Shown in pieces: positions 2,653 through 43,994 of a DNA stretch of 64,000 nucleotides. The notes beneath the pieces are model-generated. The model made no database searches and was not told where the DNA came from. It saw nothing but the letters and a program-made list of their open reading frames with translations. Every line of letters begins with the position of its first letter. Position 1 is the stretch's first letter. The position numbers were made by a program, and so were the translations under genes. Origin of the DNA: a virus (taxonomy: Duplodnaviria; Caudoviricetes); the IMG/VR virus record IMGVR_UViG_2576861548_000003, positions 1-64,000 of that record; one strand, given 5' to 3'.

Positions 2653-3405
2653 ATGAAAACTATAGAATTATTTAATGACCATTTCCAAAATTATAAAGTA
2701 TACGGGATTCCCAAAGCGCAATTAATTATTGCAGATGTGCCCTACAATCTTGGAAACAACGCTTACGCCTCCAATCCTTCTTGGTATGTCGATGGCGATA
2801 ACAAGAATGGCGAAAGCGATCTGGCTGGCAAAGAGTTCTTTGATACAGATAAAGACTTTAGACCCGCAGAGTTTATGCACTTCTGTAGCCAAATGTTGAT
2901 GAAAGAACCGAAGGAGAAGAGCAAGGCTCCCTGTATGATTATCTTCTGTGAATTTGAAGATCAGTTCAGATACATTGAACTCGGGAAACGTTACGGGCTG
3001 AATAATTACATAAACCTTGTGTTTAGAAAAGACTTCTCCGCACAAGTCTTAAAGGCAAACATGAAGATTGTCGGCAACTGTGAGTATGGTTTGCTTTTAT
3101 ATAGAGACAAACTCCCTAAGTTCAACAATGACGGACGAATGATATTCAACTGCTTCGACTGGGTGCGGGACGGTGAGACTCCCAAGGTGCACCCAACGCA
3201 AAAGCCGGTACCGCTACTTCGTAGATTGATAGAAATATTCACCGACAAGGGTGATGTAGTCATAGATCCGTGTGCCGGTAGTGGCTCTACTTTGTTAGCC
3301 TCTGCCCAATTAGGACGTAAAGCATACGGATTTGAAATAAAGAAAGATTTCTTTAGAGAGGCTAATAAGTTGGTTTTATCCCGAGTCCAACAATCGTTAT
3401 TTTAA
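2653..3405 (+). CDS. orphan DNA methyltransferase (N4C/N6A, beta class)
   Basis: DVPY catalytic motif, HPTQKP, DPCAGSGST SAM-binding motif. Confidence 0.9.
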   Translation: MKTIELFNDHFQNYKVYGIPKAQLIIADVPYNLGNNAYASNPSWYVDGDNKNGESDLAGKEFFDTDKDFRPAEFMHFCSQMLMKEPKEKSKAPCMIIFCEFEDQFRYIELGKRYGLNNYINLVFRKDFSAQVLKANMKIVGNCEYGLLLYRDKLPKFNNDGRMIFNCFDWVRDGETPKVHPTQKPVPLLRRLIEIFTDKGDVVIDPCAGSGSTLLASAQLGRKAYGFEIKKDFFREANKLVLSRVQQSLF

Positions 3406-3433
3406 CCTTTAACTCCATAAAAATAAATCAATT

Positions 3434-3919
3434 ATGACACACTGGAAAACCCAATTTAATTACCCATATCTGGGCGCTCACAGCCTTCCGGAAGGCAAAG
3501 ATTTAATCCTTACTATCCGAGAAATGAAGCGCGAAGAAGTGACCGGGGAAAACGGTAAGAAAGATATGTGCTTAATCGCATATTTTCACGAGAATGTCAA
3601 ACCGATGGTAGTTAACAAAACCAACTGTAAAACATTGGAGAAACTGTTTAAAACGCCAGATATTGAGCAATGGATCAATAAGGCTATGCAAGTCGGCTCC
3701 GCTCGTGTAAATGTAAAAGGAGAAATGGTAGATGCACTTCGTATCAGACCATTTGCGCCGAAACTGGATGATACCAGATCAACCGTTGAAACCGGCTCCG
3801 CAATCTGGAACAACATTATAGACGGTTTAAAAGGCGGCTATACAGTAAATCAGGTTATCGCTAAGTACAAACTAACCAAAGAACAAATAAAAGAATTACA
3901 GAAACATGAAATCCATTAG
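3434..3919 (+). CDS. conserved phage protein, possibly ssDNA-binding/recombination
   Basis: KPMVVNKTN motif; lies upstream of the exonuclease. Confidence 0.5.
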   Translation: MTHWKTQFNYPYLGAHSLPEGKDLILTIREMKREEVTGENGKKDMCLIAYFHENVKPMVVNKTNCKTLEKLFKTPDIEQWINKAMQVGSARVNVKGEMVDALRIRPFAPKLDDTRSTVETGSAIWNNIIDGLKGGYTVNQVIAKYKLTKEQIKELQKHEIH

Positions 3920-4223
3920 AATAAAACGGGCAACAACTTGTGGTGTCAGGGTTTGCGAAGGTGAATTATTTGAGGCGCATGGCTTTCAGTTCTGTATAAC
4001 AAATAGTTTTGATCCGGTTATCTATTATGCCATCGAAGTAACCTCCGGTATGTCTGCATGTAAGCGGTTTACATTTTATTTTGAGAATGAATACGCTTGC
4101 ATTAAAGCTGTAAAGCAATGGATTGTACAGAATGGAGCACTTTTCGATAATAATTTGCTTGATCGTAGTAAAAAGGCACTGATAAAATACAATATTAAAT
4201 TTCCTCTAAATAATAAAATATGA
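3906..4223 (+). CDS. hypothetical protein
   Basis: Overlaps both neighbours in the operon. Confidence 0.55.
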   Translation: MKSIRIKRATTCGVRVCEGELFEAHGFQFCITNSFDPVIYYAIEVTSGMSACKRFTFYFENEYACIKAVKQWIVQNGALFDNNLLDRSKKALIKYNIKFPLNNKI

Positions 4224-5035
4224 AATCCGCTGAACAAAAAGAATTTGAATGGAAAGAAAAACGGCGTGGTCTGATTACAGCCTCCGTTCTTCCTGATCTG
4301 ATGAAAGCCGGCAAAGGTACGCCATTTGGCAAAGCCGCTTTAGATGTGATGTTTGCTGTTCGCTATGAACGCCGAACCGGAGTAACCCGAGAAAACGGCA
4401 CAGCAAAGGCCTTCGATTGGGGGCACGAAAATGAACCGCTCGCCGTGGAATGGCTACGTACGCAGCTATTAAATGAAATCAAGTCCTGTACTACCGATTT
4501 TGAGGACATCGTATTTAACGAGCCGTTTGAAGGCTTTGGCGATTCGCCGGATGCCTATGTATATGGCTTTGATGGAAAAGTATCGGCACTGGTTGAAATT
4601 AAGTGCCCGATGTCACAAGGAAAGATCGAGTCACTACAACTGCTACAGGAAATTAACGACAAAGATGAATACTATTGGCAGTTTCTCGGGCATTTCCTCG
4701 GTCGCCCGGATATAGATACCCTATATTATGTCATCTATGACGGCTATGTAAATGACGGGCGTCTGCTTGAAATGCACCGGAGTGATCACACTGAAAACAT
4801 ACAGAAGTTGTATGACCGGGTACGACTGGCAAATGAAATGATAGACGAATCATTACGGAGTGGTCGGGATTTTCCGGAATGTATCGACAAGGCTAAGGAA
4901 GTTTTAGCGATAAAGGTTGAAATTGAAACATTAAAACCGAAAGCAAAAGGCAATGTCCCGGTACAAAATCAAATAACAAGGCTAAAAAAGCAATTAAAGA
5001 AATTGAAATTAGCAAGTACTGTCACAACACATTAA
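4220..5035 (+). CDS. YqaJ/lambda-exonuclease-like recombination nuclease
   Basis: EWKEKRRGLITAS, WGHENE, SPD, EIKCP, YYWQ motifs. Confidence 0.88.
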   Translation: MKSAEQKEFEWKEKRRGLITASVLPDLMKAGKGTPFGKAALDVMFAVRYERRTGVTRENGTAKAFDWGHENEPLAVEWLRTQLLNEIKSCTTDFEDIVFNEPFEGFGDSPDAYVYGFDGKVSALVEIKCPMSQGKIESLQLLQEINDKDEYYWQFLGHFLGRPDIDTLYYVIYDGYVNDGRLLEMHRSDHTENIQKLYDRVRLANEMIDESLRSGRDFPECIDKAKEVLAIKVEIETLKPKAKGNVPVQNQITRLKKQLKKLKLASTVTTH

Positions 5036-5059
5036 CATAACATTTTAAAATATACAATT

Positions 5060-5506
5060 ATGATGCACACTTGGTTTTTATGCAAAATCCGTTACGAGAA
5101 AATAGACTCAGACGGAGTTAACAAAAAAGTTACTGAACCCTATTTAGTCGATGCACTCAGCTTCACCGAAGCGGAAGCACGTATTATCGAAGAAACAACA
5201 CCATTTATCACTGGCGAATTTACCGTTACCGATATAAAACGCGCCAATTATAGCGAACTCTTTCCATCTGATGAAGAAGCGGCCGATAAATGGTATGCCG
5301 GACGACTTGCTTTCGTTGTGCTGGATGAAAAGACCGCAAAGGAGAAACGAACCTATACGAATGTACTTGTACAGGCCGCCGATCTCCGCGATGCTATGAA
5401 GAAAGTAGATGAAGGTATGAAAAATACCATGGCGGAATATCAATCTATTGCATTGAAAGAAACTGCAATTATGGATGTCTACCCATATCGTTCAAAGGAT
5501 AAGTAA
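5060..5506 (+). CDS. DUF4494-family Bacteroidetes protein
   Basis: WFLCKIRYEK...EPYLVDALSFTEAEARIIEE; homologous to 43997-44614. Confidence 0.8.
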   Translation: MMHTWFLCKIRYEKIDSDGVNKKVTEPYLVDALSFTEAEARIIEETTPFITGEFTVTDIKRANYSELFPSDEEAADKWYAGRLAFVVLDEKTAKEKRTYTNVLVQAADLRDAMKKVDEGMKNTMAEYQSIALKETAIMDVYPYRSKDK

Positions 5507-37210: not shown

Positions 37211-37978
37211 ATGGAGGAAAACAAATTGACAAAACAAGAAAATGACACATTATCGATATTTGGTAAAGGAAAGACCATTTATCAGGTTGCGGGTAATGAC
37301 GTAGCATTATCATTTGATATTGTACGTAACTATTTAACGAAAGGTAGCGGGCAAGTATCCGATCAGGATATTGTACAGTTTATTAGTATTTGCAAATTTA
37401 ACCAGCTTAATCCATTCTTGAACGAAGCATTCCTTGTCAAGTTTGGACAACAACCGGCGCAGATGATTGTCAGTAAAGAGGCTTTTTTTAAACGAGCTGA
37501 CGCAAGTGAACAGTACGAAGGTTTCAAGGCTGGTGTCATACTTATCAGAGATAATCAAATTGTAGAGGTGGAAGGATGTTTCTATAATGAAAAAACAGAT
37601 GTTCTTGTTGGAGGATGGTGTGAAGTTTATCGTTCAGACCGTAAATTTCCTATTGTAGCGAAAGTGAATCTTTCCGAATACGACAAAAAGCAATCTATAT
37701 GGAATGAAAAGAAATCCACCATGATTTCCAAGATTGCTAAGGTTCAGGCATTACGTGAAGCTTTTCCTGCTCAACTTGGAGCAATGTATACACAAGAAGA
37801 ACAAGAGGTTAAATTTGCAGAATACGAGGATGTGACTGGGAAAGAATCTAAAGGTAATAAACTTGCGGAAATTGCTGCTAAGGCCGCAGGGGTGGAAGAA
37901 CAACCTAACCCGGAGCAATTAGAAACTCAATCTCAAAATAACGCGAATAATAAACCTGTTCAAAAAACACTGTTATGA
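37211..37978 (+). CDS. bet: phage recombinase Bet/RecT family
   Basis: CKFNQLNPFLNEAFLVKF, GGWCEVYR, MISKIAKVQALREAFP. Confidence 0.9.
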   Translation: MEENKLTKQENDTLSIFGKGKTIYQVAGNDVALSFDIVRNYLTKGSGQVSDQDIVQFISICKFNQLNPFLNEAFLVKFGQQPAQMIVSKEAFFKRADASEQYEGFKAGVILIRDNQIVEVEGCFYNEKTDVLVGGWCEVYRSDRKFPIVAKVNLSEYDKKQSIWNEKKSTMISKIAKVQALREAFPAQLGAMYTQEEQEVKFAEYEDVTGKESKGNKLAEIAAKAAGVEEQPNPEQLETQSQNNANNKPVQKTLL

Positions 37979-38907
37979 TGGAAAATGATGGTGAAATATG
38001 GAAAGATATAGTTGGATATGAGGGTAGATACCAAGTGTCCAACTATGGAAGAATTAAATCTCTTGATATTAACTTGCATAAACGTGATGGAAAGATAGAG
38101 TTTAGGAAAGGTAAAATTCTTAAAGCCAGTTTAAGCGCGTTTGGCTATCCTCAGTACTGCTTTAGTTCCAGTTTTGGTAAACGAAAGCTCATGAGGATAC
38201 ATAGAGTTGTAGCAGAAACTTTTATTCCTAATCCTGATAAAAAGCCATTTATTGATCATATAAATCGTATAAAGACAGATAATAATGTTAATAATTTGCG
38301 ATGGTGCACAGGCAAGGAGAATATGAATAACCCATTAACAAGGGAATGGTTGAAAAACTGTAGGCCAAGTTTCCACCATTCAGAAGAAGTTAAGAAAAAG
38401 ATAGGGTTATTAAACAAGGGACGCATATTTAAAGAATCTACAAGAGAAAAACTCCGTATTAGAGGATTTCCAGTAATGCAGTTTACTATAAGTGGTGATT
38501 TTATCATGGAGTATAAAAGTCCTTATTATGCTCAAAGTGAGACAGGGGCATTACGAACCCATATTGTAGCTTGTTGTAATGGAAAAAGGAAAACAGCTGG
38601 TGGGTATAGATGGGTCTATAAAAAAAATTATAAAGGGAAGGATCTACCTAAATTGGCAAATAAAAAGCGCATATACAAAACAGGTTATAAGCAAACAAAA
38701 CAGGCTATAATAAATATGCGTAAATCTAAAGAAAAATACCGTAAAGCGGTATTAGTCTTTTCATTAGACGGTTCGTTTCTGTCTGAATATCCTTCAATTA
38801 TTGAAGCAGGCAATGCAACAGGCACAAATTTCGGCTCAATATGTAATTGTTGTAGGGGTAGAATTGGACAATCAAATGGTTACAGATTTAAATATAAAGA
38901 TATATGA
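37975..38907 (+). CDS. free-standing HNH homing endonuclease (NUMOD4-HNH-NUMOD1)
   Basis: EIWKDIVGYEGRYQVSNYGRIKS, HRVVAETF..DHINRIKTDN..NLRWCT, two NUMOD1-like repeats. Confidence 0.9.
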   Translation: MMENDGEIWKDIVGYEGRYQVSNYGRIKSLDINLHKRDGKIEFRKGKILKASLSAFGYPQYCFSSSFGKRKLMRIHRVVAETFIPNPDKKPFIDHINRIKTDNNVNNLRWCTGKENMNNPLTREWLKNCRPSFHHSEEVKKKIGLLNKGRIFKESTREKLRIRGFPVMQFTISGDFIMEYKSPYYAQSETGALRTHIVACCNGKRKTAGGYRWVYKKNYKGKDLPKLANKKRIYKTGYKQTKQAIINMRKSKEKYRKAVLVFSLDGSFLSEYPSIIEAGNATGTNFGSICNCCRGRIGQSNGYRFKYKDI

Positions 38908-39587
38908 TGAATTACAATTTTGAACAAAGGACCATAGGATGGATGCGTGAGCGTCTCGGAAACATTACTGGTAGCAATGTCGGCTTGCTTATGAAAAGCG
39001 GAAGAAACGACATGTTCAGCGACACTGCCAAGAATTACATTTTCCAAGTTGCGGCAGAACGGGCTATGAATCCAGAAATAGTTAATGATGATATTGCATT
39101 TGCCGAATATTTGTCTACTGTCAATGTAGAAAGCAAAGCAATGAGATTCGGGACAGAGCAAGAATCGAGTGCACGCGATTTGTATTCTAGATTGACTGGA
39201 AGGCATATTGTAGAAGTGGGGTCGTGTAAGCACCCCACTATCCCAAACTTTGCCAGTAGTCCTGACGGGTTCTTTTATGATGAAGAATCTGAAGAATGTG
39301 GATGTATAGAAATAAAATCTCCTTCCCAAAATACTTTCATGAAGTACAAAAGCGAAGTTTATGATAATGAATCGCTTCTTAAAGTAAAGTATGAATACTT
39401 TTATCAGTGTATGGCTCACATGATGTGCTGTAATGCAAGATGGACTGACTTTGTAGCTTATAATCCTTTTCAAATAGATCCTATTCACATTGTTCGTATA
39501 CTACCAGATGAAAAGGTCTTTGCAGAAATGGAGAAACGCATCAAAATGGCAGATGACATTATTAACCAAATAGCGGATATTGAATGA
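38904..39587 (+). CDS. YqaJ/lambda-type exonuclease
   Basis: RLGNITGS, FGTEQE, SSPDG, EIKSP, YFYQ. Confidence 0.9.
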   Translation: MMNYNFEQRTIGWMRERLGNITGSNVGLLMKSGRNDMFSDTAKNYIFQVAAERAMNPEIVNDDIAFAEYLSTVNVESKAMRFGTEQESSARDLYSRLTGRHIVEVGSCKHPTIPNFASSPDGFFYDEESEECGCIEIKSPSQNTFMKYKSEVYDNESLLKVKYEYFYQCMAHMMCCNARWTDFVAYNPFQIDPIHIVRILPDEKVFAEMEKRIKMADDIINQIADIE

Positions 39588-41131: not shown

Positions 41132-41608
41132 ATGAAAACTTTGCAAATCAGTGAACAAAAAGCTAGAGAACTCTACAAAAGTGGTTCCAGCGAGTTAAAA
41201 TCTATTTTGGAAGAGTCTTTTGGAAAAGATTTTTTCTCTCAAAAGATAACAGATAGAGTTAAAACCTATGAAGATGCATGTCGCGAATTAAGTACCAGTC
41301 CTCTTGATGAAAATAAGTTGATGAAACTCGGTCTTACTAAACATGATATTGCTTATCAAAAGTTGGTAACCATTATCAAGGCCCTTAACGAAGGTTGGGT
41401 ACCGGATGTATGTGATAGTAGTGTATATAGATGGTACCCGTGGTTCAAGACTAATGGTTCTCCTTCCTCTTTCGCTTTCTGCGATTCGCTTTGCGCTTAT
41501 GTTTATGCGGATGCGGGTAGCGGGTCTCGCCTTTGCTTGAAAAGTAAAGAATTGTCAGAGTATTGTGGTAAACAATTCATTGACCTTTGGAAACAGTTCA
41601 TTATTTAA
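41132..41608 (+). CDS. DGR target protein 1 (158 aa)
   Basis: Contains VR1; VKTYEDA..ALNEGW.PD..YPWF motifs shared with target 2; ATG at 41132. Confidence 0.85.
   Translation: MKTLQISEQKARELYKSGSSELKSILEESFGKDFFSQKITDRVKTYEDACRELSTSPLDENKLMKLGLTKHDIAYQKLVTIIKALNEGWVPDVCDSSVYRWYPWFKTNGSPSSFAFCDSLCAYVYADAGSGSRLCLKSKELSEYCGKQFIDLWKQFII
41459..41533 (+). repeat. DGR variable repeat VR1
   Basis: 75-nt alignment to TR: 15 mismatches, 14 at TR adenines. Confidence 0.95.
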
Positions 41609-41623
41609 CTAAATATTATCATC

Positions 41624-42004
41624 ATGAAAAAAGAAAATAAAAAGATTACAGAGTTAGTCAAAACGTTTGAGGATGCCCGTAAGCTGACCGGCAGACCGGA
41701 TGTTCCTGACTTTTCCAATCTTCCCACTGACATGCGCAAACATTTTGAGGCACAGTATAAGATGATTGTAATTGCAGAAGCCCTTAACGAGGGATGGATT
41801 CCTGATTGGGATAATTATAATGAATATAAGTATTATCCTTGGTTTGAAATGTCTCCTTCCTCTTTCGCTTTCGACGGTTCGTTTTACGATTGTGCTTATG
41901 CGTATGCGGGTAGCGGGTCTCGCCTTAAATTTCGGACACGCGAGCTTGCAAATTATGCAGCAGAGCAATTTATTGATATTTGGAAAGATATCCAGATAGG
42001 ATAG
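41624..42004 (+). CDS. DGR target protein 2 (126 aa)
   Basis: Paralogue of target 1; contains VR2. Confidence 0.88.
   Translation: MKKENKKITELVKTFEDARKLTGRPDVPDFSNLPTDMRKHFEAQYKMIVIAEALNEGWIPDWDNYNEYKYYPWFEMSPSSFAFDGSFYDCAYAYAGSGSRLKFRTRELANYAAEQFIDIWKDIQIG
41852..41926 (+). repeat. DGR variable repeat VR2
   Basis: 75-nt alignment to TR: 13 mismatches, all at TR adenines. Confidence 0.95.
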
Positions 42005-42027: not shown

Positions 42028-42102
42028 TCTCCTTCCTCTTTCGCTTTCAACGATTCGAATTACGATAATGCAAATGCGAATGCAGGTAGCAGGTCTCACC
42101 TA
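42028..42102 (+). repeat. DGR template repeat TR
   Basis: TCTCCTTCCTCTTTCGCTTTCAACGATTCGAATTACGATAATGCAAATGCGAATGCAGGTAGCAGGTCTCACCTA; 19 adenines, five AAY codons; intergenic just upstream of RT. Confidence 0.95.
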
Positions 42103-42208
42103 TGTTACAATAATCCAATGGGCAGGGGCCTCACCTCTTGGTGGAAAATAACAATTCAAACGGTGTCGGTAGGGCTTATCCGAAGACTCTTATTAGAAAC
42201 AAAGGCTT

Positions 42209-43195
42209 ATGAAACGATTTGGAAATTTATACTATCGTATTTGTGACATTGATAACCTTTACCTTGCATATACCAAAGCAAGAAAAGGCAAGGGAAATAC
42301 TTATGGGGTCATTCAATTTGAGAAAGAATTGGATGACAACATAAATACCCTTCATAAGGAACTGTCAGAAGGTAAATACGTTACTTCTGAATATCAAACT
42401 TTTATCATACATGATCCTAAGGAACGTGAAATATACCGGCTCCCTTTCCGTGATCGTGTTGTTCATCATGCGATAATGAATATCCTCGAAGATATATGGA
42501 CTCCGATATTCATTTCACATACTTATTCATGTATTAAGGGCAGAGGTATCCATGGAGTAATGAAACATCTAAAGAAAGATTTGAAAGATATCCAAAATAC
42601 AAAATATTGCCTGAAAATGGATATTCGTAAATACTATCCGTCAATAGATCATTTGATACTTAAGAATATTGTCCGAAAGAAGGTTAAGGACAAACGTCTT
42701 CTTGAGTTACTCGACGGTATTATTGATTCTGCTCCGGGAATACCTATCGGTAATTATCTTTCTCAGTTCTTTGCAAACTTGTATCTATCTTACTTTGACC
42801 ACTGGCTTAAAGAGGAAAGACGTATAAAGTATTATTATAGATATGCTGATGATATGGTAATACTTTCATCAAACAAAGAAGAGCTTCACTCTCTGCTTGG
42901 AGATATAAAATCATATCTGCATAATAAGCTTCATTTAAATTTAAAAGACAATTATCAAATATTCCCGGTTGATAATAGAGGAATTGACTTTGTTGGCTAT
43001 GTTTTCTTTCACACTCATATTTTAATGCGGAAAAGTATCAAGAAAAACTTCTGTAGAAAAGTAGCAGTGTTGAACAAAAAGAAAACTACATCCTGCAACT
43101 GCAAGATAGCACTTTGTTCATGGATGGGATGGGCAAAACATTGTAATTCAAAGCACTTAATTAAAACTGTAATCAAAAATGAAAAGGTTTTCTGA
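42209..43195 (+). CDS. DGR reverse transcriptase
   Basis: PKEREI..LPFRDRVVHHA, KMDIRKYYPSI, GIPIGNYLSQ (DGR SQ motif), YADD; no maturase or endonuclease domain. Confidence 0.95.
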   Translation: MKRFGNLYYRICDIDNLYLAYTKARKGKGNTYGVIQFEKELDDNINTLHKELSEGKYVTSEYQTFIIHDPKEREIYRLPFRDRVVHHAIMNILEDIWTPIFISHTYSCIKGRGIHGVMKHLKKDLKDIQNTKYCLKMDIRKYYPSIDHLILKNIVRKKVKDKRLLELLDGIIDSAPGIPIGNYLSQFFANLYLSYFDHWLKEERRIKYYYRYADDMVILSSNKEELHSLLGDIKSYLHNKLHLNLKDNYQIFPVDNRGIDFVGYVFFHTHILMRKSIKKNFCRKVAVLNKKKTTSCNCKIALCSWMGWAKHCNSKHLIKTVIKNEKVF

Positions 43196-43496
43196 TTTTG
43201 GAATTGATATTGACGCGGGACGTAATATTTTCCCTGTACAGCAAATATCAATAACCGATATACTCAACTGTGAGATAGAGGTACTTGACTATGAATCTGG
43301 AGTTAAAACTCAACATGGAGATAATCGTTGCGTAGTCAAGATTAGGCATGAAGGAGCTGAATATAAATTCTTTACTAACTCTTCTCCGATAAAAGAGGCA
43401 CTTAGTAAAATTTCCAAAGAAGATTTTCCATTTATAGCTACAGTACGTATCAAGAAAATAGGTACTGGTAATAATAAAATGTATTATTTCACTTAA
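43179..43496 (+). CDS. RT-coupled 105-aa protein (candidate DGR accessory factor)
   Basis: Overlaps RT stop by 17 nt; alternating hydrophobic beta-strand pattern. Confidence 0.65.
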   Translation: MKRFSDFGIDIDAGRNIFPVQQISITDILNCEIEVLDYESGVKTQHGDNRCVVKIRHEGAEYKFFTNSSPIKEALSKISKEDFPFIATVRIKKIGTGNNKMYYFT

Positions 43497-43508
43497 AAGA
43501 TATTGTAT

Positions 43509-43994
43509 ATGAAAATTACAATCAATAAACCAACTGAATTTGAGGCTGTCTACCTGAAAGTAGATGCAGGTGTTCGCTATTGGGAGGATGCAATAGTAAA
43601 CGGAATAAGAGACATTGATTTATACGAGAGTAATGGTATAGGCAGCCCTCTTATTCCTTGCGCTGTACAAATAAAAGAAGAACCTGACTATAATATATAT
43701 TCAGACCATTATCGTTGGAGACCTATTATAACGATTGAAACTGGTCGAATAGTCAACTGGATGCAGGGAACAACTGCTAATGTTCACTACAAAGTGTGTG
43801 ATGATTTTATATGTGATATTGTTGATGAAGATGATAGTGCTATTGTTTCTTATGACGGCTATGTACCTAAGATCATGTGTCCGGCAGATAAAGGATATGG
43901 TGACTATATCATTATGAATATTGACGAAAACGGATTTATTCAAGGATGGAATAAGGAACTAATTAAAGAACTTGTAAAACAAGAGGAGGATTAA
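43509..43994 (+). CDS. conserved phage hypothetical protein
   Basis: AGVRYWEDA, HYKVCD, GYVP, GYGDYI motifs. Confidence 0.65.
   Translation: MKITINKPTEFEAVYLKVDAGVRYWEDAIVNGIRDIDLYESNGIGSPLIPCAVQIKEEPDYNIYSDHYRWRPIITIETGRIVNWMQGTTANVHYKVCDDFICDIVDEDDSAIVSYDGYVPKIMCPADKGYGDYIIMNIDENGFIQGWNKELIKELVKQEED

Follow-up and report, generated by a model that had tools for sequence, protein, structure and literature searches.

The first 64,000 nucleotides (nt) of the IMG/VR virus record IMGVR_UViG_2576861548_000003 (Duplodnaviria; Caudoviricetes), hereafter referred to as the window, contain a complete diversity-generating retroelement (DGR) with a template repeat (TR), two variable repeats (VRs), two target genes and a reverse transcriptase (RT) (Table 1). 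Of the 15 mismatches between VR1 and the TR, 14 are located at TR adenines, as are all 13 mismatches of VR2. The subject of this analysis is a small open reading frame (ORF) of 105 amino acids (aa) starting within the end of the RT gene. A first-pass annotation of the window had proposed its product as a substitute for Avd, the accessory protein of other DGRs, possibly with a fold resembling the oligonucleotide/oligosaccharide-binding (OB) type. The description on which this proposal was built proved to be correct in all details we checked: the ORF overlaps the RT stop by 17 nt in the +1 frame, the 23 nt between the end of target gene 2 and the start of the TR offer no space for a gene, and every peptide string quoted as a likely beta-strand is found in the ORF translation. 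The gene is placed after the RT, not in the position between target gene and TR that is occupied by avd or by the potential accessory gene 1 (PAG1) of other cassettes.

Table 1. Features of the DGR locus and its upstream and downstream neighbors, in window coordinates.
Feature	Position	Strand	Remarks
DGR target gene 1, 187 aa	41045..41608	+	phrog_11581 1.9e-35; contains VR1
VR1	41459-41533	+	3' end of target gene 1; direct repeat of TR
DGR target gene 2, 126 aa	41624..42004	+	phrog_11581 1.6e-24; contains VR2
VR2	41852-41926	+	3' end of target gene 2; direct repeat of TR
TR, 75 nt, 19 adenines	42028..42102	+	direct-repeat family D1
Spacer RNA with conserved structure, between TR and RT	42131..42190	+	RNAalifold, 19 relatives
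DGR RT, 328 aa	42209..43195	+	RVT_1 4.9e-17; phrog_1423 1.8e-131
17-nt overlap of RT and 105-aa ORF	43179..43195	+	ORF in +1 frame relative to RT
105-aa OB-like protein, ATG start	43179..43496	+	phrog_19665 4.3e-32; candidate DGR accessory subunit
163-aa acidic ORF, pI 4.38	43503-43994		directly after the OB gene
RecT-like annealing protein	37211-37978		part of recombination module
Inserted HNH endonuclease	37975-38907		part of recombination module
RecE-like exonuclease	38904-39587		part of recombination module

The lack of an avd gene in the vicinity, as well as elsewhere in the prophage, was confirmed with three Avd profiles (PF05635, NF033474, and TIGR02436), none of which matched the whole 109,908-bp provirus record at E ≤ 1. 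This search covered the provirus record, and Avd is poorly conserved, so that a very divergent or a host-encoded copy is possible. The DGR is nevertheless active and has undergone recent mutagenic homing, because near-identical phages differ only in their two VRs, and there at TR-adenine positions. Seven phage loci (L005-L010 and L012) share an identical TR, while all of their VR1 and VR2 sequences are different. In six of them the OB-like protein is identical and the RT 98.5-100% identical, the respective values for the seventh (L012) being 97% and 96%. Among the 14 VR copies of these loci, 13 differ from the TR at adenines only; the exception is the second VR copy of L008 with a single non-adenine difference. 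Similarly, a 9.7-kb contig from a mouse-gut metatranscriptome shows 23 differences from the window over 3 kb, all of them within the two VRs and 22 at TR-adenine positions. These metatranscriptome data are assembled contigs and hence give no proof of transcription. The single non-adenine mismatch in VR1 of the window is a change of C to T at offset 43 (window 41502); all four metatranscriptome assemblies carry a C at this position, and the T probably arose by a point mutation private to this copy.

The 105-aa ORF is a real gene under purifying selection. It matches the profile of PHROG 19665, a family without assigned function, over its entire length (E 4.3e-32), with residues 1-105 aligned to positions 2-105 of the 105-position profile, while no family was found for it in Pfam and NCBIfam. 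A word-indexed search gave 104 candidates, 102 of which were homologous clusters at E ≤ 1e-3, showing 46-94% identity and in 88 cases a length of 102-108 aa. A profile built from 63 clusters and compared with 1.84 billion representatives yielded 492 matches at E ≤ 1e-3, including 147 at E ≤ 1e-10. The ratio of nonsynonymous to synonymous substitution rates (dN/dS) ranged from 0.05 to 0.26 (codons 8-105; relatives with unsaturated dS), and in more distant pairs the synonymous sites are saturated with the proteins still being at least 57% identical. The invariant residues of the family include R50, K63, F64, F65, P84, and F85, and an N-terminal segment (M1-F4-S5-G8) is close to invariant. The calculated isoelectric point (pI) of the protein is near neutral (7.76). 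In 54 viral and 10 bacterial-genome loci, including relatives whose proteins are only 56% identical, the gene likewise overlaps the RT gene in the +1 frame, by 11-44 nt, and no insertion or deletion is listed at the junction of RT and ORF in the four metatranscriptome assemblies. Most likely, translation of the protein starts at its own ATG and is coupled to termination on the RT gene. One viral relative (L054, 3917-4420) has an altered and longer OB C-terminus within an open frame of 167 aa (62% identity), possibly representing a frameshifted copy.

In every testable locus, the gene is found together with an RT. On viral contigs, an RT is located directly upstream in 56 out of 56 testable loci (57 in total, one of them starting inside the gene), with a +1 overlap of 17, 29 or 44 nt in 54 of them and, in the other two, a gap of about 350 nt that is filled by a 126-aa ORF. 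In named Bacteroidota genomes, covering Tannerella, Dysgonomonas, Proteiniphilum, Paludibacter, Petrimonas, Prevotella, Alistipes, Bacteroides, and other genera, an upstream RT on the same strand is present in all 23 testable loci (24 in total, one at a contig end), comprising 10 overlaps of 11-29 nt, one fusion, and 12 gaps of 263-819 nt. Among 201 genomes of one family, the profile matched nine, and all 14 loci, which represent 13 distinct places, have an RT at a distance of approximately 1 kb or less. In four of these (L095-L097 and L099), the OB gene is situated about 285-320 nt upstream of the RT, i.e., in the avd slot. The expected co-occurrence of the family with RTs was thus observed in all testable loci, the RT being located on the same strand at no more than about 1 kb, with fusions in many lineages, and homologues occurring mostly without RTs were not what we found. 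Two distant viral loci (L060/L061, 3608-3988) harbor a 126-aa ORF without family assignment, which overlaps the RT end and lies between RT and OB gene; the gaps of the 12 bacterial-genome loci may contain similar extra genes.

This distribution bears on the question whether the gene encodes an ordinary phage replication protein of the single-stranded DNA-binding (SSB) type, or any other phage protein, that neighbors the RT by chance. Such a role would agree with the SSB-like fold neighbors described below and with the location of the locus within a recombination/replication module. However, the gene travels with the RT: the RT-OB pair is kept while the downstream genes vary among relatives, which argues against an ordinary phage neighbor. 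Moreover, the domain accompanies RTs in the unrelated Hankyphage, LoVEphage, and BKO1-TP3 as well as in chromosomal loci of many Bacteroidota genera, and it has repeatedly been fused to the RT. We consider the probability of a chance neighborhood to be negligible.

The reciprocal analysis started from the RT. In the same 201 genomes, an RT profile identified 17 RT places at E ≤ 1e-30. The module is present at 14 of them, detected by tblastn in nine cases, by profile search in one, and as a divergent fused extension in four, the latter being homologous according to hhalign (probability 96.1%, E 3.3e-9, 97 columns). Restricted to RT places with E ≤ 1e-100, the module is found at 10 out of 10. 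The remaining three of the 17 places comprise one seeming divergent fusion, one DGR of a different type with an HRDC accessory gene in place of the module and an FGE-sulfatase-type target, and one other kind of RT. This different DGR type is seen in the same family at L109 (1474-3953), with a 335-aa RT and no OB module.

Fusions to the RT give the closest insight into the nature of the protein. A tblastn search of 50,697 phage records returned 28 matched records, all of them with at least 80% query coverage, 31.5-37.6% identity, and an origin from Bacteroides/Phocaeicola phages or faecal contigs. In Hankyphage p00, the match (L001, 4001-4324) covers the final 108 residues of the protein annotated as RT (3023-4327). 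The domain is likewise found at the end of the 496-aa RT of BKO1-TP3, and in LoVEphage it ends the third of three RT pieces located in different frames. The LoVEphage RT (L002, MW660583; 3799-5342) is built from the overlapping frames 3799-4614, 4475-4810, and 4758-5342, i.e., with two frame changes, and each piece is listed in the record as a hypothetical protein of its own. The start methionine of the 105-aa ORF aligns with a methionine conserved in the fused RTs, and the rare fused forms among close relatives retain this residue as well. Considering the best 150 of the 492 profile matches, on which our fusion counts rest, 107 are not longer than 135 aa. RVT_1 is contained in all 22 matches above 300 aa, at E ≤ 3e-6 in 21 and at 7.8e-4 in one; all 22 can be aligned with the window RT and have the domain at the extreme C-terminus. 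Of the 21 matches of 136-300 aa, 10 include a piece of the RT thumb. For the close fused relative P0107 (428 aa), a structure model was obtained with a mean predicted local distance difference test score (pLDDT) of 89.9 and a predicted template modeling score (pTM) of 0.71. Its first ~330 residues superpose on the Bordetella DGR RT (8ub7_A, 328 aa), the nearest solved structure, with a TM-score of 0.92 relative to this target and 35% identity. The 328-aa RT of the window is complete without the extra domain. Judged by sequence comparison, the 105-aa protein is a free-standing version of the detachable domain found at the RT C-terminus in relatives.

Since relatives carry the domain fused in frame to the RT, and the junction in the window lies within an A-rich run, the ORF could also be regarded as an RT tail broken off by a frameshift, caused by mutation or assembly error, which does not encode a separate protein. 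This explanation hardly deserves credence. The +1 overlap and the aligned ATG are kept in the 54 viral and 10 bacterial-genome loci, the length of 102-108 aa is maintained in 88 of the 102 clusters under the dN/dS values given above, and the four independent metatranscriptome assemblies are free of an indel at the junction. Furthermore, the 328-aa RT matches the full Bordetella RT in length and fold, and it belongs to a DGR that is active. A related explanation invokes programmed +1 (or -2) ribosomal frameshifting, by which an RT-OB fusion as in Hankyphage would be produced. Fused and split forms are both common, and the window contains the stretch GTTTTCTGA in the overlap before the RT stop. 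Nevertheless, the overlap sequence is not conserved, a group with 78% identity has no U-run, and the overlaps vary in length from 11 to 44 nt, whereas conservation extends to the start ATG as well as to the MK(R/K)FS motif. In addition, the gene is located hundreds of bases away from the RT in 12 + 2 loci and upstream of it in four. The free protein should work alone, because its gene is separate from or upstream of the RT in those loci, and frameshifting is accordingly very improbable as the way in which the protein is made.

Structure prediction with AlphaFold2, based on a 63-sequence alignment, provided a model of the 105-aa protein with a mean pLDDT of 89.5 and a pTM of 0.76. The predicted strands E32-44, E47-57, E60-66, E85-93, and E100-104, together with one main helix (H69-77), agree with the beta-strand pattern anticipated from the translation. 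They would be arranged in the order β1-β2-β3-α-β4-β5, which is the order of an OB fold with the helix between strands 3 and 4. The weak top matches of a Foldseek search against the Protein Data Bank (PDB) are mostly OB folds (PrgE, DUF35, Teb1/CST, and RPA). An exhaustive aligner gave its best score to domain II of RuvBL2 (2cqa, Z 6.0), and the SSBs PRD1 P12 (Z 5.5, 85 residues), Rim1 (5.3), and Bartonella SSB (5.1) were also retrieved. In BFVD, a protein with an RT domain ranks first (1.1e-6), ahead of several phage SSBs (1e-3 to 1e-2), and a neighbor cluster in the ESM Atlas consists to 44% of Phi29 SSB (PF17427), which we take as a lead only. The OB-like fold suggested by the first-pass annotation thus agrees with both the predicted topology and the nearest folds, at scores which are only middling. 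The invariant residues R50, K63, F64, and F65 are positioned on the predicted strands 2-3 and would be compatible with the binding of single-stranded nucleic acid.

A possible ligand is encoded between TR and RT. The spacer RNA contains a hairpin (42131-42144; stem 42132-42135/42140-42143, loop TCTT) starting 29 nt after the TR, and a second helix formed by 42162-42166 with 42186-42190. Compensatory changes are found in both helices (RNAalifold, 19 relatives). In this structure, 95.9% of the cells pair in comparison to 86.5% in shuffled alignments, and 24 cells compared with 8.8 show changes on both sides; none of 500 shuffles reached either value. In the cryo-electron microscopy structure of an Avd-type DGR, as described in the parts of the preprint by Handa et al. 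considered here, an Avd pentamer binds the RT and holds a stem-loop located just 3' of the TR. The spacer hairpin resembles this Avd-binding stem-loop in position and form, here in a DGR without Avd, suggesting that the OB-like protein may bind at the spacer RNA.

On the basis of these findings, we interpret the 105-aa protein as an OB-like partner of the DGR RT, which would bind both the RT and single-stranded nucleic acid and thereby provide an accessory function of the Avd type. We assign a probability of about 0.7 to this reading of the protein as an RT-bound accessory module, and the earlier idea of an OB-like accessory factor is supported as far as computation allows. The protein is probably the helper of a widespread group of retroelements without Avd. 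Related DGRs of Bacteroidota carry the module in various arrangements: fused to the RT at its C-terminus, encoded separately just downstream of the RT, or encoded within the avd slot. Association of the free protein with the RT is suggested because relatives carry the RT fusion; docking may occur via the conserved N-terminal segment MK(R/K)FS(D/E)(F/L)G, which serves as linker in the fused forms. The face formed by strands 2-3 would then bind single-stranded nucleic acid within the DGR ribonucleoprotein, with the structured RNA that adjoins the TR on its 3' side and the nascent complementary DNA (cDNA) as the alternative ligands. Two variants of this mechanism can be envisaged. In the first, the protein would act like Avd in arranging the RNA on the 3' side of the TR for priming, which is favored by the avd-slot position in some relatives and by the covarying hairpin after the TR. 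In the second, it would handle the cDNA after synthesis, for which the SSB-like fold neighbors and the position behind the thumb give support. Within the framework of an RT-bound accessory module, we lean toward the first variant.

A more distinct alternative is a DGR-dedicated SSB-like domain acting after cDNA synthesis and not in place of Avd, i.e., coating the cDNA or delivering it to the target for retrohoming. The nearest folds are single-stranded DNA-binding proteins, the domain directly follows the thumb in the fused RTs, and the DGR adjoins genes for a RecT-like annealing protein and a RecE-like exonuclease. An equivalent position behind the thumb is held by the DNA-binding D domain in the RTs that group II introns encode. 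On the other hand, the four avd-slot loci contain no other candidate for the role of Avd, and the Avd-binding stem-loop has a counterpart in the covarying hairpin on the 3' side of the TR, both points being compatible with a cDNA role, too. Altogether, we regard this alternative as rather unlikely, yet as the one to be taken most seriously besides the Avd-type accessory function.

Several observations weigh against the interpretation as an Avd-type accessory and limit its generality. The module is common, yet not universal in this RT group, because two crAss-like phages with similar RTs have no detectable copy. The closest RTs in the phage collection belong to crAss-like phages (50-58% identity), and the two examined, cr52_1 and C0526BW15, are complete genomes with Lineage-3-like RTs, in which neither the OB module nor avd was detectable. 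A six-frame search with a hidden Markov model, which found all positive controls, revealed no module within 2.5 kb of either RT; the search of the whole records was empty as well, a weak result without a control genome. A crAss-like Lineage 3 DGR has also been reported without avd (PMC7290462, in the parts considered here). A 93-aa ORF following the RT in C0526BW15 was evaluated as a possible module and found to be unrelated. In cr52_1 (L117, 3616-4239), the coding sequence after the RT has two in-frame stops under translation table 11, which suggests stop-codon reassignment. Regarding the fold, Foldseek gave nothing at E ≤ 1e-3 against the PDB (best E ≥ 0.07), and the Z scores of 5.1-6.0 are middling, a range that may reflect merely a common arrangement. 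No sequence match to a nucleic-acid-binding family was obtained in Pfam, NCBIfam or the PDB: a Pfam scan of 50 family members gave scattered chance matches only, and the family profile found nothing below E 0.13 among PDB sequences. The near-neutral protein is furthermore unlike the basic Avd (pI ~9.5). In the model of P0107, the linker reaches a pLDDT of only ~58-60 at a pTM of 0.71, so no fixed docking is predicted. Finally, many of the viral loci are closely related and do not represent independent observations.

With respect to the surroundings of the cassette, both targets are very small proteins belonging to a family without assigned function (phrog_11581). They are encoded in the early/replication region and not in a tail module, and both are naturally diversified. 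The recombination module is situated just upstream of the DGR (window 37211-39587), while some relatives (e.g., L020) have an exonuclease-like gene downstream of the DGR instead. The proximity of the DGR to functions for annealing single-stranded DNA may bear on the mode of cDNA integration. The 163-aa ORF following the OB gene is present in only the closest relatives and is hence not counted as part of the cassette.

The relation of the module to known DGR components can be assessed mainly against the 2018 survey by Wu et al. (PMC5758913), to which we refer in the parts of the paper and its supplement considered here. There, avd was reported in 74% of DGRs, with the Lineage 3 DGRs being devoid of it. 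About a quarter of DGRs have no avd, and their Avd-independent mechanism has been an issue since that survey. Four accessory classes (avd, HRDC, MSL, and CH1) were distinguished from four "tenuous" candidates, PAG1-4, and approximately 20% of DGR RTs were found to carry unexplained C-terminal extensions of up to ~150 aa, in which no motif was reported. For PAG1, three proteins from Alistipes and Bacteroides were listed (116-122 aa), whose genes are located between the target gene and the TR of Lineage 3 cassettes that have no avd and possess CLec3-type targets (PMC5758913). The PAG1 alignment printed there carries the motifs of the 105-aa family. The PAG1-like proteins P0184, P0252, and P0254, whose identity with the printed entries was judged by eye, are matched by our family profile at 1.1e-15 to 1.4e-10, and P0184 matches the C-terminus of the Hankyphage RT at 5e-9; a search of viral contigs with P0184 gave no confirmed locus. 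PAG1 is homologous to the 105-aa protein and shares Lineage 3, the absence of avd, and the CLec3-type targets with the window cassette, while differing in the location of the gene, which in the window follows and overlaps the RT. In the parts of Wu et al. and its supplement considered, PAG1 and the RT extensions are not connected. A literature search for PAG1 with DGRs returned nothing relevant beyond that survey, and one for DGRs without avd returned no proposal of an OB- or SSB-like accessory. Already known is therefore one family member, PAG1, as a weak candidate from 2018. New are the connection of three forms, namely the gene in its free state, the gene in the avd slot, and the Hankyphage-type RT extension, as well as the evidence that such Avd-less cassettes are active. 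One RT-linked domain family thereby joins the RT extensions, the "tenuous" PAG1, and the small ORFs after RTs.

Homology to the Hankyphage-type (Lineage 3a) RT extension spans all 105 residues (37% identity, 2e-14). There, the domain is a covalent part of a 434-aa RT, which is followed by CH1/DUF4376, in contrast to the separate polypeptide of the window. Papers on Hankyphage, in the parts considered here, refer to a small Avd-like ORF on the basis of size and charge or label Avd in a figure; the 64-aa ORF between VR and TR of this phage matches no family. HRDC, MSL, and CH1 are likewise small cassette-encoded proteins tied to particular RT clades. The 105-aa ORF has no HRDC or MutS match. CH1 proteins were described as acidic (pI about 4.7), 160-169 aa in length, and encoded directly after the RT (PMC5758913, same parts), to which the 105-aa protein with its pI of 7.76 does not fit, and the Hankyphage CH1 (162 aa, acidic, after the RT), a DUF4376 protein, is unrelated to it. 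The 163-aa ORF of the window was also considered as a CH1; it fits in size, charge, and position, whereas BLASTP against the Hankyphage CH1 resulted in E = 33 and no DUF4376 match was found. With SSBs of the phi29 p5/PRD1 P12 kind as well as bacterial and mitochondrial SSBs, the protein shares the predicted strand order; a relationship at the sequence level was not found, and its gene belongs with an RT rather than a replisome.

More tentatively, and with the odds slightly against it, the OB-like module may be the missing cofactor of many Avd-less Lineage 3 DGRs of Bacteroidota, the globally common Hankyphage included, acting in free, fused or avd-slot form by binding the conserved hairpin on the 3' side of the TR, the nascent cDNA, or both. 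If true, DGR ribonucleoproteins would exist in a second architecture without structural relation to the first, with an RT and a monomeric OB domain where the other has an RT and an Avd pentamer. The window encodes a candidate two-protein system of this kind, the 328-aa RT with the 105-aa protein, which belongs to elements with natural variation indicative of recent activity and is a relative of the most widespread DGR of Bacteroides phages. If the module replaces the Avd pentamer, it would offer a compact option for engineered DGR mutagenesis. In direct comparison, Avd of the Bordetella phage BPP-1 is likewise a small cassette-encoded protein, and its slot between target gene and TR is occupied by the OB gene in some relatives. 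Avd is a helical, barrel-forming pentamer and basic (mean pI 9.5 ± 0.7; PMC5758913, parts considered here), whereas the 105-aa protein is a predicted beta barrel with one helix and a pI of 7.76, matches no Avd/23S-IVP profile, and is often fused to the RT in its relatives. We thus do not describe a new kind of system, but a DGR with a different, modular accessory domain.

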